64,000 nucleotides of DNA from a virus, in IMG/VR virus record IMGVR_UViG_3300031088_000734; one strand, written 5' to 3'. The notes beneath the pieces were generated by a model. The model did no database searches. It was given only the letters and a program-made list of their open reading frames with translations, and was not told where the DNA came from. Positions 14,377-63,323 of this stretch are shown here, in pieces. The translations under genes and the position numbers were made by a program. How positions within the stretch are numbered: the stretch's first letter is position 1; each line of letters begins with the position of its first letter.

Positions 14377-14898
14377 ATGTTTCAATTAATAATAAAGCTT
14401 ATTTTGGTCAGTTTTTATGCTCTATTGACAGCTTGTAGTCCTAATGGTCATTTGACTGAGAATTTAGAACCGCAAGGTAAAGCTTTTTTCGATCCAGAAA
14501 ATAGATCTCTGCTGGGTTATAAGCTGTATGAAAAAATGGACAATATCTCGAAAGATACCCATTATACTTTTTTGAAAAAAGAAGATGATGTCACTTATTA
14601 TACTGTTAACAATCAAAAAAATGATCCTCGACAGTTATTGCTAACGATCAGTGTGCGAAATGACAAAATCTATTCGATAGAAACTCGTTATGAATATCCA
14701 CATTTCAGTAGTTGTAATGCGGCCACTCAACAAATCTATGATGAGACAAACGCTTTCTTTCCACTTGCAAAAAGACCTGATGTTAATGATAAAGGATATC
14801 ATTTCGATGGTGTTCATAAGAATTTAATCTTTGTAACCGCCTGTACTGACCTTATTGAAAATGATAAAATTATCCATAGCAGTCTCTATACACGATAG
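14377..14898 (+). CDS. putative lipoprotein
   Basis: 173 aa; hydrophobic N-terminus with LTA|C lipobox; TAG stop. Confidence 0.75.
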   Translation: MFQLIIKLILVSFYALLTACSPNGHLTENLEPQGKAFFDPENRSLLGYKLYEKMDNISKDTHYTFLKKEDDVTYYTVNNQKNDPRQLLLTISVRNDKIYSIETRYEYPHFSSCNAATQQIYDETNAFFPLAKRPDVNDKGYHFDGVHKNLIFVTACTDLIENDKIIHSSLYTR

Positions 14899-14956: not shown

Positions 14957-15033
14957 CTCTGCGTAGCTCAGTTGGATAGAGTGCCCGCTTCCGAAGCGGA
15001 CGGTCGTTGGTTCGAATCCAACCGTAGAGGCCA
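14957..15033 (+). tRNA. trnR: tRNA-Arg (anticodon CCG)
   Basis: 77-nt cloverleaf: acceptor CTCTGCG/CGTAGAG, D loop with GG and A20, loop TT-CCG-AA, T arm GTTGG-TTCGAAT-CCAAC, encoded CCA. Confidence 0.95.
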
Positions 15034-15054: not shown

Positions 15055-15399
15055 ATGAGCATTCAAAAATATCTATACCTTGCTGTTCTTATTGATACTT
15101 CGCATGATTCTGTTTGTGTAGCCGCTGTAACCAAAGATACATGGGACAACCACCAGATGTATGACAATACTGGTGATATTGAAGATGTAGTTGCTCGCAT
15201 TCAAGTCTCTGGCTATTTCTTAGAGTCCAGCGGATTAGATTTTTCCTTTCTAGACATCATTGAAAAAAACGAGATCCCTTTAACACCAAAAGATGCCCCT
15301 GCTTTAATGAATGAAATTAAAAAAAGTGGGTTCGTTATCAATCATGATTTTGCTCATAAAATACATGAAGATTCTAATGGACAATATACCGTTCCTTAG
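15055..15399 (+). CDS. hypothetical protein
   Basis: 114 aa, AGGAG RBS directly after tRNA; TAG stop. Confidence 0.8.
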   Translation: MSIQKYLYLAVLIDTSHDSVCVAAVTKDTWDNHQMYDNTGDIEDVVARIQVSGYFLESSGLDFSFLDIIEKNEIPLTPKDAPALMNEIKKSGFVINHDFAHKIHEDSNGQYTVP

Positions 15400-21371: not shown

Positions 21372-21400
21372 TTGCCAAAGGGTTTAAAATGTCGTATAAT
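21372..21400 (+). promoter_or_regulatory. sigma70-type promoter of the ncRNA unit
   Basis: TTGCCA-17 bp-TATAAT. Confidence 0.85.
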
Positions 21401-21422
21401 GGCCCCGTTGTAAAGCAGTAAG

Positions 21423-21744
21423 TAATCTTGGGAAGTTGGCTTAAAAGCAGCCATCTTATAATGAGTAGAGCGGTTGCCATAGGTGTTTGGGATTTAGTGA
21501 TGGTAAGCATCGGGTTTAAATGATTTAGCGGTCATTTGAGGGTATCGGTGACAAGTGAGCCACGGTTTGTCGAAATCGAATCCACATTAAAGTAGATTTT
21601 GCAGATCAAAACGTCTCAGCCAAAAACTCCCAGTTCTTGCAATAATGTAAGAATTCGCCGTGGTTGTGGTCTTGGTAAAGTAAGGAGGCACCCCAGAAAT
21701 GGTAAGGCCGAATTCTCTTTTGGCGTAATAGCACACCATGATTA
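21423..21744 (+). ncRNA. structured RNA containing a split mimic of the 23S rRNA GTPase-associated centre (H43-H44)
   Basis: GGAAGTTGGCTTAAAAGCAGCCATC...GAGT (21431-21466) and GCGTAATAGCACAC (21723-21736) match 23S ~1055-1104; closing helix TAATCTTGG/CCATGATTA. Confidence 0.75.
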
Positions 21745-21764
21745 TGATTGTTTTCGCAACAAAA

Positions 21765-21833
21765 CTGCCACTAAGGCTGACCTTAGCCCTCTAAAAGCTA
21801 AAGGGAACGGTTCGACTCCGTTGTGGTGGGCCA
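21765..21833 (+). tRNA. atypical 69-nt tRNA-like element, anticodon CUA (amber), reduced D arm
   Basis: Acceptor CTGCCAC/GTGGTGG + G + CCA; T arm AACGG-TTCGACT-CCGTT; loop CT-CTA-AA; D arm AGG-CTGA-CCT. Confidence 0.7.
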
Positions 21834-21843
21834 ACTTTAAACT

Positions 21844-21880
21844 AAATGCCAGCTCATAGCGATATGATGTTGGCATTTTT
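21844..21880 (+). terminator. intrinsic terminator ending the ncRNA unit
   Basis: AAATGCCAGC...GTTGGCATTT followed by TT. Confidence 0.75.
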
Positions 21881-21936
21881 ATTGTCTTTATTTTATTTTT
21901 GTGTTATAATCGTCCAAATTTTTGGAGATCCATTGA

Positions 21937-47536: not shown

Positions 47537-48622
47537 ATGTCTACGTTTAAAGCTACTGTTCTTTCAGTCATTGTTGAGCCACATCCTAACGCTGATGCGA
47601 TTGAACTGGCTCGCGTTGGTGATTTCTTTTCGATTATCCAAAAGGGATACTTGAAAACTGGCGACTTGGCTGTTTATATCCCAGAAGGTGCTCTTGTTCC
47701 TGAATTCATTCAAGAAGAAGTAGGTTGCCTTGGTAAATTGGCAGGTTCCAAGAAAAACCGTTTGAAACCATCTATGCTTCGTGGCGTCCTTAGCCAAGGT
47801 CTTTGCTTTAAGGCCCGTGAAGGCTGGGAAATCGGTGATGATAAAGCCGAAGAATTGGGTATCGTGAAATACGAAGCTCCTATTCCAGCATCCATGAATG
47901 GTGAGATTACCAACGTAGGCATTGAAAACACTTTCCACTTTGACATTGAAAACGTTAAACGCTACCCTGATGTATTGGTAGCAGGTGAAGAAGTCATTAT
48001 GACTGAAAAATTGCACGGCACGTTCACTGTTGCGGGTAGTGTGTATGGTAAAGATCCAATCCCACACACTGTTAATGGTCGCTCTTTCGTGAGTAGCAAA
48101 GGGTTCTTTAACAAAGGTTTGGTGCTTCGTGATAACGAACAAAATGCTCATAACATTTACATTCGTGTAGCGAAGAAATTTAACCTTTACGACATTACGG
48201 CTATCCTGTCAGACCGTTACAAAACCAACGCTTACATTTCAGGTGAAACGTTTGGTGCTGTTCAAGACTTGACTTATGGTCTTGAAGCTGGTGTGTTTGA
48301 TTTCCGTGTGTTCAACGTGTTCCTTGGAAATCGTAGTGATGCAAAAGGCGTGTTTGCAGTTAATGATGATGTGTTGGAAGAGATTCTTGCTGAATTCAAC
48401 TTGAAACGTGTGCCAGTGCTTTACAAAGGGCCATTCAGTAAAGAAGTGATGTTGAAACACACTGATGGTCTTGAAACCTACTCAGGTCAAGAAACGCACA
48501 TTCGTGAAGGGCTTGTTATTGAGCCACTTATTCAGCGTCGTGACCCAACTATTGGGCGTGTTGTCTTGAAAAGTGTTTCAACTGCTTACTTGTCGCGTAA
48601 AGGTGGCACTGAGCTTAACTAA
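47537..48622 (+). CDS. RNA ligase, DRB0094 / Rnl2-type with N-terminal OB-like domain
   Basis: HPNADAIEL...GDLAVYIPEG N-domain; TEKLHGT (motif I), GETFG, FDFRVFNV, REGLVI (IV), VLKSVS (V). Confidence 0.88.
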   Translation: MSTFKATVLSVIVEPHPNADAIELARVGDFFSIIQKGYLKTGDLAVYIPEGALVPEFIQEEVGCLGKLAGSKKNRLKPSMLRGVLSQGLCFKAREGWEIGDDKAEELGIVKYEAPIPASMNGEITNVGIENTFHFDIENVKRYPDVLVAGEEVIMTEKLHGTFTVAGSVYGKDPIPHTVNGRSFVSSKGFFNKGLVLRDNEQNAHNIYIRVAKKFNLYDITAILSDRYKTNAYISGETFGAVQDLTYGLEAGVFDFRVFNVFLGNRSDAKGVFAVNDDVLEEILAEFNLKRVPVLYKGPFSKEVMLKHTDGLETYSGQETHIREGLVIEPLIQRRDPTIGRVVLKSVSTAYLSRKGGTELN

Positions 48623-61997: not shown

Positions 61998-62168
61998 AGA
62001 TTACCCCTCAAATAATATGTTATTTTACGTTAAATATAATAGAAAGTCAATATTCCACACTATTTTCAATTTATTTCTTTATTTTTAACTTTTTTGTGAT
62101 TAAACACGTTGCTTTATAGGCTCTATTTTGATACAATGTCGTCAATGAAAACAACGGAGATACACCAC

Positions 62169-63323
62169 ATGTCAATTTTCCCAACTATCCGCCACATTGA
62201 TGACATCTTGCCAGCTTTGGTTGGTAAAGATTACATCGGCATCAACAAGCAATCTAACGGTGCAACCGTCATTTGCTATAACATCAGCAATGCTGAAGGT
62301 TTTGCTACGTCTTTTGAAAAAGAGTGCCGTGGTATCACTTTTGACCGTGATGGTAAAATTGTATCCCGTCCTTTGCATAAGTTCTTCAACTTGGCAGAGC
62401 GTGAGGAAGTATTGCCACAAAACTTGAATTGGGACGATGTTGTTGCTGTCTTTGATAAAATGGACGGTTCGATGATTACAGGTGGTGTATTCCACGGTGA
62501 AGTCTTCGTAAAATCGAAAAAATCCTTTGAATCGGATGTGGCTGTCTCTGCTTTGGCGTATGTGAAAGCAAACCAGAAATATTATGATTTCATCAAGCAT
62601 TGTGCTGATGTGGATTTGACACCTGTTTTTGAATACACTTCGCCAAATAACCGCATCGTGTTGCGTTACGATGAAGAAAAAATGACTGTCTTGCATGTTC
62701 GTCATAACATCACTGGTGTGTACCATACTCCAGATGAAGTGGCAGCATTGGCTAAGTCTTTTGATATTCCAGTGAACGCTCCATTGTTTGGTAAAGGCTT
62801 TGATTTGAAAGCATTGTTGGAATCTTTGAATACTGTTGAAGGTATAGAAGGTTATGTTATTCAGTTTAAAAACGGCGATATGGTGAAAGTCAAAACTCGC
62901 TGGTATGTAAATTTGCACCACGCTGTTACTTTCGTGCGTATCCGTGATATTGCTCGTTTGGTATTGTCGGAGAAAATTGACGACTACATTGCATTTGTTG
63001 CTTTGAATGCACCAGAAGCCGATTTGACTCAAATCCATCATATCAACGACACTATCAAAGGTGAAATTGAAGGAATCAAGAAAGAAGTTGATACTATTTT
63101 GGCTCAGCATCAAGATGCAGATTTCAAAACGTTGGCAACTACTTACTTGGGTCATCCATACTTCTCTTTCATCATGACAACTGCTCGTGGTAAAGAAGTG
63201 GATTATTTGGACTACTACGAACGTAACCGTTTGAAAGAAGTTTGGTCTTTGGATCAAGTGGATTTGGGTGACTTCACTGGCACCGACGAATCAGACGATG
63301 AAGTTCAAGTAGACGAAGACTGA
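62169..63323 (+). CDS. rnlA: RNA ligase, T4 Rnl1 (RnlA) family
   Basis: ATG 62169 after GGAG; KECRGITFD...SRPLHKFFN, DKMDGS (motif I), FEYTSPNNRIV, EGYVI (IV), VKVKTRWY (V). Confidence 0.88.
   Translation: MSIFPTIRHIDDILPALVGKDYIGINKQSNGATVICYNISNAEGFATSFEKECRGITFDRDGKIVSRPLHKFFNLAEREEVLPQNLNWDDVVAVFDKMDGSMITGGVFHGEVFVKSKKSFESDVAVSALAYVKANQKYYDFIKHCADVDLTPVFEYTSPNNRIVLRYDEEKMTVLHVRHNITGVYHTPDEVAALAKSFDIPVNAPLFGKGFDLKALLESLNTVEGIEGYVIQFKNGDMVKVKTRWYVNLHHAVTFVRIRDIARLVLSEKIDDYIAFVALNAPEADLTQIHHINDTIKGEIEGIKKEVDTILAQHQDADFKTLATTYLGHPYFSFIMTTARGKEVDYLDYYERNRLKEVWSLDQVDLGDFTGTDESDDEVQVDED

Follow-up and report, generated by a model that had tools for sequence, protein, structure and literature searches.

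The stretch of viral DNA analysed here, a window of 64,000 nucleotides from IMG/VR record IMGVR_UViG_3300031088_000734 (a virus record of 179 kb, 34% G+C and an estimated completeness of 55%), carries a non-coding transcription unit that ends in a 69-nt tRNA-like element with a CUA anticodon (21765-21833, plus strand), the sequence of which we read directly. The unit, also on the plus strand, opens with a sigma-70-type promoter (TTGCCA-17-TATAAT, 21372-21400, 11 of 12 matches), from which transcription is predicted to start at about G21407, and continues as a core non-coding RNA (21407-21760) that mimics the GTPase-associated centre (GAC) of 23S rRNA, the Rfam large-subunit rRNA (LSU) model matching H43/H44, the uL11/GTPase-associated centre, at 21429-79. 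In the global minimum-free-energy (MFE) fold the core is held together by a long closing helix of 21407-21431 with 21736-21760, and G21407, the predicted first base, pairs with C21760 at the outer end of this helix. An AAAA linker (21761-21764, plus strand), left single-stranded by the global fold, would serve as 5' leader to the element, which starts 4 nt past the closing helix (helix end at 21760, element start at 21765) and folds as a domain of its own. An intrinsic terminator, seen in the global fold as a hairpin (21844-78) with a U tract (21844-21880 in all, plus strand), begins 10 nt past the CCA of the element, and a promoter search places the next promoter at 21882-21910. Both the promoter and the terminator of the unit are kept in the single DNA relative that we found (G001, 97% identical across the unit). 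The element is thus the final part of a non-coding unit with its own promoter and terminator, outside any tRNA array, and we infer that it is co-transcribed with the mimic RNA because of the promoter at 21372-21400, the terminator hairpin at 21844-78 and one RNA-library contig that spans 21421-21805. We propose, at a probability of roughly 55%, that the element is a tRNA-derived module that would provide an RNase P site for making the 3' end of the mimic RNA.

The anatomy described in the sequence-only reading was borne out arm by arm, with the D stem now placed at 3 bp. The acceptor stem (21765-71 with 21823-29) comprises seven pairs, C1-G72, U2.G71, G3.U70, C4-G69, C5-G68, A6-U67 and C7-G66, of which two are G.U pairs, the wobble G3.U70 being formed by G21767 and U21827. 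Together with a canonical T arm (21806-22; AACGG / UUCGACU / CCGUU), the discriminator G73 (21830) and an encoded CCA (21831-33), this stem gives the element the 7-bp acceptor, the 5-bp T stem with TPsiC-type loop, the discriminator and the CCA of a canonical tRNA. The 4-bp D stem, the 7-11-nt D loop with G18G19 and nucleotide 26 of such a tRNA are all missing. Instead, U8 and A9 lead from the acceptor stem into a D arm (21774-83) with a 3-bp stem (AGG/CCU) and a 4-nt loop (CUGA) that has neither G18G19 nor a position 20, and, with nucleotide 26 absent, the D stem abuts the anticodon stem. The anticodon arm (21784-800) has the stem UAGC(C)/(A)GCUA, in which the pairs U-A, A-U, G-C and C-G are followed by a closing C31.A39 mismatch, and the loop CUCUAAA (U33, A37, A38), with the anticodon CUA at 21791-93; a variable region of 5 nt (21801-05) separates it from the T arm. 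All of these parts lie on the plus strand.

The element was called neither by ARAGORN in default mode nor by Rfam at its gathering score. In metazoan-mitochondrial mode, in which reduced D arms are allowed, ARAGORN drew the same 69-nt cloverleaf and labelled it 'mtRNA-Pyl(cta)', so that the tRNA-finder check proposed with the sequence-only reading came out positive in one mode and negative in the other. The Rfam tRNA model RF00005, for which only 86 nt were searched, aligned across the full stretch 21765-21830, reproducing the anticodon arm and skipping the D arm, and scored 19.8 bits against a gathering threshold of 29, compared with 58.6 bits for the tRNA-Arg of the same phage; by score, the element is not a canonical tRNA. 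We also scanned the 179-kb record for a frame made of a TTCRANY T loop in a 5-bp stem, directly followed by a 7-nt strand pairing 25-65 nt upstream and then by NCCA. This frame occurred at 4 sites (one strand), namely the three tRNAs that ARAGORN calls (Arg-CCG, Leu-UAG and Cys-GCA) and the element, whereas 21.5 Mb of shuffled genome contained none; such an acceptor/T-arm/CCA frame lies far outside what chance would produce. The inner part behaves differently: when the frame was kept and the inner 34 nt were shuffled, ARAGORN in mitochondrial mode still reported a tRNA with unchanged ends in 81 of 1000 trials (8%), so that little weight can be given to the D and anticodon arms by themselves. 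Furthermore, the MFE fold of the element keeps the acceptor, the T arm and the D hairpin but pairs CCC (21787-89) with GGG (21803-05), burying the CUA in a helix, at -21.6 kcal/mol vs. -16.8 kcal/mol for the cloverleaf. The decoding half, comprising the D and anticodon arms, is plausible, if weakly supported.

The position of the element gains meaning from the family to which the mimic RNA belongs. A 21-nt GAC motif retrieved 103 viral loci, only 2 of which are real 23S rRNA, and the 0.92 Mb of loci around the family RNAs hold 532 tRNA genes. Among 66 distinct cores, 16 are followed by a canonical tRNA on the same strand that begins 9-42 nt past the conserved 3' motif (with 12 different anticodons), 16 have a tRNA ending 10-36 nt upstream, and 27 have a tRNA on one side or the other. 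At the five loci with tRNAs on both sides we folded the spacers (142-296 nt): in four, gaps of 3-6 nt and 3-9 nt separate the closing helix from the upstream and the downstream tRNA, respectively, and in the fifth, L089, the end of the helix lies similarly near the downstream tRNA, with an extra hairpin on the upstream side. Because it starts 4 nt past the helix end, the element occupies the slot of the downstream 'punctuating' tRNA of the family. Three other lineages (the L050 group, the L005 group and L071) have tRNA-shaped elements downstream, 15, 38 and 68 nt past the 3' motif, respectively, with good acceptor, D and T arms and with expanded or aberrant anticodon regions; models of these as tRNAs with introns were unconvincing. 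Canonical CUA tRNAs also occur in the family loci, five in number, in tRNA arrays of other GAC-mimic phages: L095:6207-6279(-), L008:3087-3162(-), L030:6487-6562(+), L023:2606-2679(+) and L060:11864-11940(+). Those of L095 and L060 combine a C31.A39 mismatch with a CUCUAAA loop identical to that of the element; judged by this shared sequence, the element is probably derived from, or convergent with, a true anticodon arm of the amber-suppressor type. A global alignment to 472 distinct tRNAs of the family loci gave no clear parent type.

RNA evidence came from contigs of 4 RNA libraries in 4 studies, all from 95-99% relatives; as these are assembled contigs, neither ends nor absences can be proved from them. 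Together they cover 21421/25-21760. Contig X19 runs to 21760, where the closing helix has its last pair, and then shows one C and the Illumina adapter; this is a real RNA fragment end, 4 nt before the element. We regard the support for processing from these contigs as a weak but consistent hint. The stretch 21806-33, with the T arm and the CCA, is reached by no RNA contig, which counts as no evidence of absence. Contig X16, from a plant-metagenome RNA library and a 97%-like relative, leaves the window sequence after 21781, and its tail could represent an alternative 3' module or arise from a chimeric read. From 21782 on it continues with 45 unrelated bases (GCTGTTAAACTTTACAGGGGGTTCTGCTCC...), among which there is no CUA loop and for which viral contigs gave no match. 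In contig X18, 26 nt precede 21422, the first 15 of which are 21738-21752, in a permuted order that joins the 3' strand of the closing helix to the 5' leader (21408-21413 with 21747-21752) across a 5-nt TTGTT microhomology; this junction could stem from a circular or tandem form, or from template switching by reverse transcriptase.

For bacterial RNase P, an acceptor/T-stem stack with its T loop and an RCCA end is enough: the enzyme cleaves model hairpins of acceptor and T-stem-loop at the canonical site and pairs with the RCCA end (PMC11143913). The element presents such a substrate, with a stack of 7+5 bp, the T loop UUCGACU, the AAAA leader and a 3' GCCA (ACCA in G001). We surmise that the module retained the half of the tRNA that is read by RNase P, namely the 7+5-bp stack, the canonical T loop and the RCCA, as the D arm shrank. 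In the scheme that we propose, the unit would be transcribed from its own promoter to its terminator, and RNase P would cut between A21764 and C21765, freeing a helix-closed GAC-mimic RNA of about 355 nt with G21407 paired to C21760, the short 3' tail being trimmed back. The mimic RNA would then be closed by an almost blunt helix of about 22 pairs between its 5' end, set by the promoter, and its processed 3' end, and the 69-nt tRNA-like piece would be a by-product trimmed to its encoded CCA. In the relatives, mimic RNAs inside tRNA arrays would be freed by tRNA processing, and the element would fill the same slot; its CUA loop would be an inheritance from the tRNA ancestor, unused for reading UAG. 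Cleavage by RNase P and the absence of decoding are what we infer, and we favour them because the frame is non-random, real tRNAs stand in the same slot across the family and X19 ends at 21760, and also because of the tRNA-shaped elements in other lineages, the rare and ordinary use of TAG as a stop, the difference at the discriminator between relatives (both described below) and the substrate requirements of RNase P (PMC11143913). A processing signal for RNase P or RNase Z was one of three functions put forward from the sequence alone, and the family tRNAs in the same slot, as well as the X19 end at the last closing-helix pair, favour it over the other two, with the cleavage itself a prediction.

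By analogy, the element would work most like a 3'-end processing element of the mascRNA type. In the vertebrate MALAT1/mascRNA and NEAT1/menRNA pairs, as here, a tRNA-like structure directly follows a long non-coding RNA; there, an RNase P cut makes the 3' end of the upstream RNA and frees a small, non-decoding by-product with a CCA end (PMC8457004, PMC4824109). The vertebrate system works in the eukaryotic nucleus, adds the CCA after cleavage and closes the upstream RNA with a triple helix, whereas the phage RNA has a terminal helix, an encoded CCA and a predicted cleavage. Another close likeness is to tRNA-punctuated arrays and to RNase P substrates such as pre-4.5S RNA, pre-tmRNA and phage RNAs, in which the cut at the 5' end of a downstream tRNA sets the 3' end of the upstream RNA (PMC11143913); family mimic RNAs likewise sit between real tRNAs with 3-9-nt spacers, whereas the partner here is non-canonical and belongs to a unit with its own promoter and terminator and no array. 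Bacterial Y RNAs (YrlA) are also modular non-coding RNAs with one module that mimics tRNA (PMC4201824), but there the partner is a Ro-binding helix, whereas here it is an rRNA mimic, Rfam gave no match, and the tRNA-like part is probably cut off.

Several observations weigh against our interpretation: 1) many family members lack a tRNA partner, with an open reading frame (ORF) or a terminator coming next, so the partner is common but not obligatory, and a terminator alone can therefore do the job; 2) contig X15 crosses the boundary, running from 21421 to 21805 through the core and half of the element, and unprocessed RNA or DNA is therefore also present; 3) the contigs are all the RNA evidence there is, and no read-level 5' end at 21765 was seen; 4) the identity of the CUCUAAA loop and C31.A39 mismatch with those of canonical CUA tRNAs fits a retained function as well as it fits recent descent; 5) with a lone DNA relative at 97% identity, conservation carries no statistical power. 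In this relative, 2 of the 69 positions differ. At 21785, A becomes G, turning an A-U pair into G.U in either fold, and at 21830, G73 becomes A73. The anticodon loop is the same, and all 12 acceptor/T-stack pairs, the T-loop consensus, the CCA and G3.U70 are also intact. Variable loops among homologs had been named beforehand as a sign of a purely structural role, and the loop is unchanged in this one close relative. As the element diverges to the same extent as the rest of the RNA, selection on it cannot be measured.

The same data bear on the view that the element is an inert pseudo-tRNA, a decaying remnant of a tRNA that once followed the mimic RNA, with the terminator setting the 3' end. 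The shrunken D arm, the two acceptor G.U pairs and the sub-threshold model score would all fit such decay, as would the many odd tRNA-like remnants in phage tRNA arrays around family members, the divergence of 2/69, equal to that of the rest of the RNA, and the departure of X16 from the window sequence after 21781. However, both relatives retain 12 of 12 acceptor/T pairs along with the T-loop consensus and the CCA, the distance of 4 nt from the helix end to the element matches the placement of real tRNAs in the family, and the X19 fragment ends at 21760 and not at the terminator. We hold decay to be rather improbable. Still less credible, to a degree that makes it highly improbable, is that the element stays attached as an aminoacylatable 3' tRNA-like structure, after the fashion of transfer-messenger RNA (tmRNA) or of plant-virus tRNA-like structures, and brings the mimic to EF-Tu or the ribosome. 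The tRNA-like domain of tmRNA and alanyl-tRNA synthetase (AlaRS) minihelices do share with the element the G3.U70 pair, a reduced D region, a canonical T arm and the CCA; contig X15 covers the core together with half of the element, and in L023 the mimic is closely followed by a genuine tmRNA gene. On the other hand, tmRNA builds its acceptor from the RNA ends and has a tag frame and pseudoknots, whereas the acceptor stem here is local, within 69 nt, and is tied to no mRNA-like domain or tag frame. ARAGORN found no tmRNA at its default or at a lowered threshold, no tmRNA family appeared in Rfam even at E<=10, the partner tRNAs of the family are ordinary and of many identities, and X19 stops before the element; the element is not a tmRNA.

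A conditional amber suppressor was another function proposed from the sequence. In that case the element would be a working miniature amber-suppressor tRNA, freed by RNase P, charged most plausibly by AlaRS through G3.U70 and reading UAG in phage or host messages. In a greedy ORF set under code 11, which covers 87.6% of the record, stops are TAA in 200 cases, TGA in 55 and TAG in 16. Reading TAG as sense changes the coding coverage from 0.876 to 0.890, compared with 0.879 for TGA and 0.894 for TAA read as sense, and no 10-kb region of the 179-kb record shows a gain specific to TAG relative to these two controls. The earlier statements that long ORFs are not broken by TAG, that few genes end in it and that read-through extensions are short hold across the record: there are 16 TAG stops, no ORF is broken, and the extensions run to 0-35 codons, bar one of 158 codons. 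The last, outside the window, was rejected as a read-through candidate, as it translates to junk. In-frame TAGs that lengthen ORFs, the mark of phages with TAG recoding of the code-15 type, are absent from the available ~55% of the genome. A reassignment of this type elsewhere in the record, raised by the sequence-only reading as a prospect, was not found; in the 179-kb record (~55% of the genome), TAG is an ordinary and rare stop. A search with TIGR02367 for the pylS gene, the presence of which had also been suggested, had no match in the record of the window (G000) or in G001, and neither contains a class-I release factor or AlaRS gene that we could find; both records are ~50-55% complete, and all genome-wide negatives refer to these parts.

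The likeness to tRNA-Pyl noted at the outset stands for shape and fails for identity. Compact size, a small D loop without GG, the CUCUAAA loop and, in this window, G73 are shared. The major identity elements of tRNA-Pyl are G73 and the G1-C72 pair (PMC9976931), whereas the element has C1-G72, a 5-bp anticodon stem with a mismatch instead of 6 bp and a canonical UUCGA T loop, G001 has A73, and the PylS gene is missing from both partial records; the element is not a tRNA-Pyl. As for alanine, the G3.U70 pair pointed out earlier as the AlaRS identity element is present and kept in G001, but of the minor bacterial determinants, A73, G2-C71, G4-C69 and G20 (PMC9976931), the window has none: it shows G73 (A73 only in G001), U2.G71, C4-G69 and no position 20. 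The G73/A73 change argues, at the level of sequence, against a fixed aminoacylation identity, with the exception of AlaRS, for which G3.U70 is kept. Canonical phage amber-suppressor tRNAs, of the sort that TAG-recoded phages employ, have the identical CUCUAAA loop, and in L095 and L060 the C31.A39 mismatch, but they are full cloverleaves with GG in the D loop that ARAGORN calls by default, as opposed to the 3-bp D stem, 4-nt loop and sub-threshold score of the element in a phage without TAG reassignment.

Decoding is thus favoured by the shared loop and mismatch, by the end-to-end alignment of the Rfam tRNA model with that anticodon arm, by a CCA encoded as in the three true tRNAs of the phage, and by G3.U70 in both relatives, AlaRS being the one synthetase known to tolerate other contexts (PMC9976931). 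In addition, the example of tRNA-Pyl demonstrates that bacterial elongation factors can accept a compact D loop (PMC9976931), and recoded genes could sit in the missing parts of the records. Against it stand the 19.8 bits vs. 58.6 bits for the phage tRNA-Arg, the absence of G18G19 and of nucleotide 26 along with a D stem of 3 bp, the buried CUA of the MFE fold, the lack of TAG recoding or TAG-sense gain in 179 kb with extensions that are short or, in the one long case, junk, a discriminator that is G or A between relatives, the missing minor alanine determinants and the failure to find PylS, release factor or AlaRS genes. The loop thus speaks for the suppressor first suggested and the genome and discriminator against it, and we consider it unlikely. 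We regard it as quite unlikely that the element is a functional suppressor with a minimised D arm, in which case one transcript of a standard-code jumbo phage would yield both a tRNA for UAG and a decoy of the GTPase centre.

The phage has few true tRNAs, Cys-GCA, Leu-UAG and Arg-CCG, all three with an encoded CCA, and they do not look like codon-usage supplements. The tRNA-Arg(CCG) (14957-15033) has C1-G72, G73 and an encoded CCA as in the element; on either side of it lies an ORF that terminates with the rare TAG stop (14377-14898 and 15055-15399). The window further holds two RNA ligase genes on the plus strand, one at 47537-48622 (PF09414 with a PHA02142 OB fold) and one, T4 Rnl1-like, at 62109-63323 (PF09511), the closest phage match of the latter being from the Ralstonia jumbo phage RsoM2USA at 43% identity; this pair suggests a capacity for tRNA/RNA repair. 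A decoy was the third function suggested from the sequence alone. Such a setting would suit a released tRNA-like RNA that does not decode and serves as a decoy or sponge for a tRNA-targeting host factor, which could be an anticodon or acceptor-end nuclease or a nucleotidyltransferase toxin, or as a stable mascRNA-like effector. The two ligases point to tRNA damage and repair during infection, the phage tRNAs are not evident codon supplements, and the acceptor, T arm and CCA of the element are intact. However, no host tRNA carries CUA, so that the loop fits no natural target of an anticodon nuclease, no binding partner can be named, and the sequence does not separate a decoy from a processing handle; we give this role a slim chance.

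If the element does provide an RNase P handle, it suggests a route of maturation for an apparently undescribed and widespread family of phage RNAs that copy the ribosomal uL11/GTPase-associated centre; neither the mimic family nor an element of this type turned up in our literature searches. The RNAs of the family appear to ride on the tRNA-processing machinery, and a mimic RNA that leaves a tRNA array seems to keep a stripped-down tRNA as the maker of its 3' end, which, if true, would be a bacterial-virus counterpart of the MALAT1/mascRNA arrangement. The same reading gives exact ends for the mimic RNA, ~21407-21760. Should the element still decode, it would be an unusually small suppressor tRNA of bacterial type, relevant to genetic-code expansion and to phage control of translation, and interference with termination or translation factors would be coupled to stop-codon read-through.

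Searches for further relatives with exact and degenerate patterns (T arm plus acceptor; the end of the 3' part of the core, that is, the GAC-mimic motif with the closing-helix strand; the 5' half of the element; the insert) in viral, metagenome and genome collections gave only G001 or random matches. The upstream ORF has no relatives in viral contigs, the largest protein of the phage has no phage match, and the mimic RNA is absent from RsoM2USA, the best cultured relative as judged by Rnl1. Two other pairings of the region were set aside. The 3' GGGCCA of the element can pair with DNA just upstream of the transcription start and shows one apparent compensatory change in G001, but we rejected this pairing: the bases in question probably lie ahead of the transcription start, and a second change disrupts it. 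An alternative 5' acceptor strand, TCGCCGT at 21655-61, was judged to be a chance match, with G.U accounting for 4 of its 7 pairs.

Among the family loci, L023 carries a phage-encoded tmRNA gene (tag ANTNFALAA) 211 nt past the 3' motif of the mimic. Odd tRNA-like elements, either CCA-ended or armless, lie in the arrays of L011 (309 to 386), L027 (-343 to -273) and L071 (-278 to -220; all offsets from the start of the GAC motif); in one of them the D arm is absent and the variable region long, another has a 6-8-nt loop containing CUA, and a third, of 58 nt, is without an anticodon arm. The phage itself has a second degenerate tRNA-like element, outside the window and on the minus strand (contig C1 of G000, ~65457-65552), with a canonical T arm (TGGGTTCGAGTCCCA), a 7-bp acceptor-like pairing and no CCA, which ARAGORN calls only at a lowered threshold. 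Lastly, the window stretch 21380-21900 occurs whole and exact in 14 DNA sequencing runs from 9 studies, which include small runs labelled with four single organisms as well as phyllosphere, soil and surface metagenomes; the phage or provirus seems to be widespread and present in isolate sequencing.

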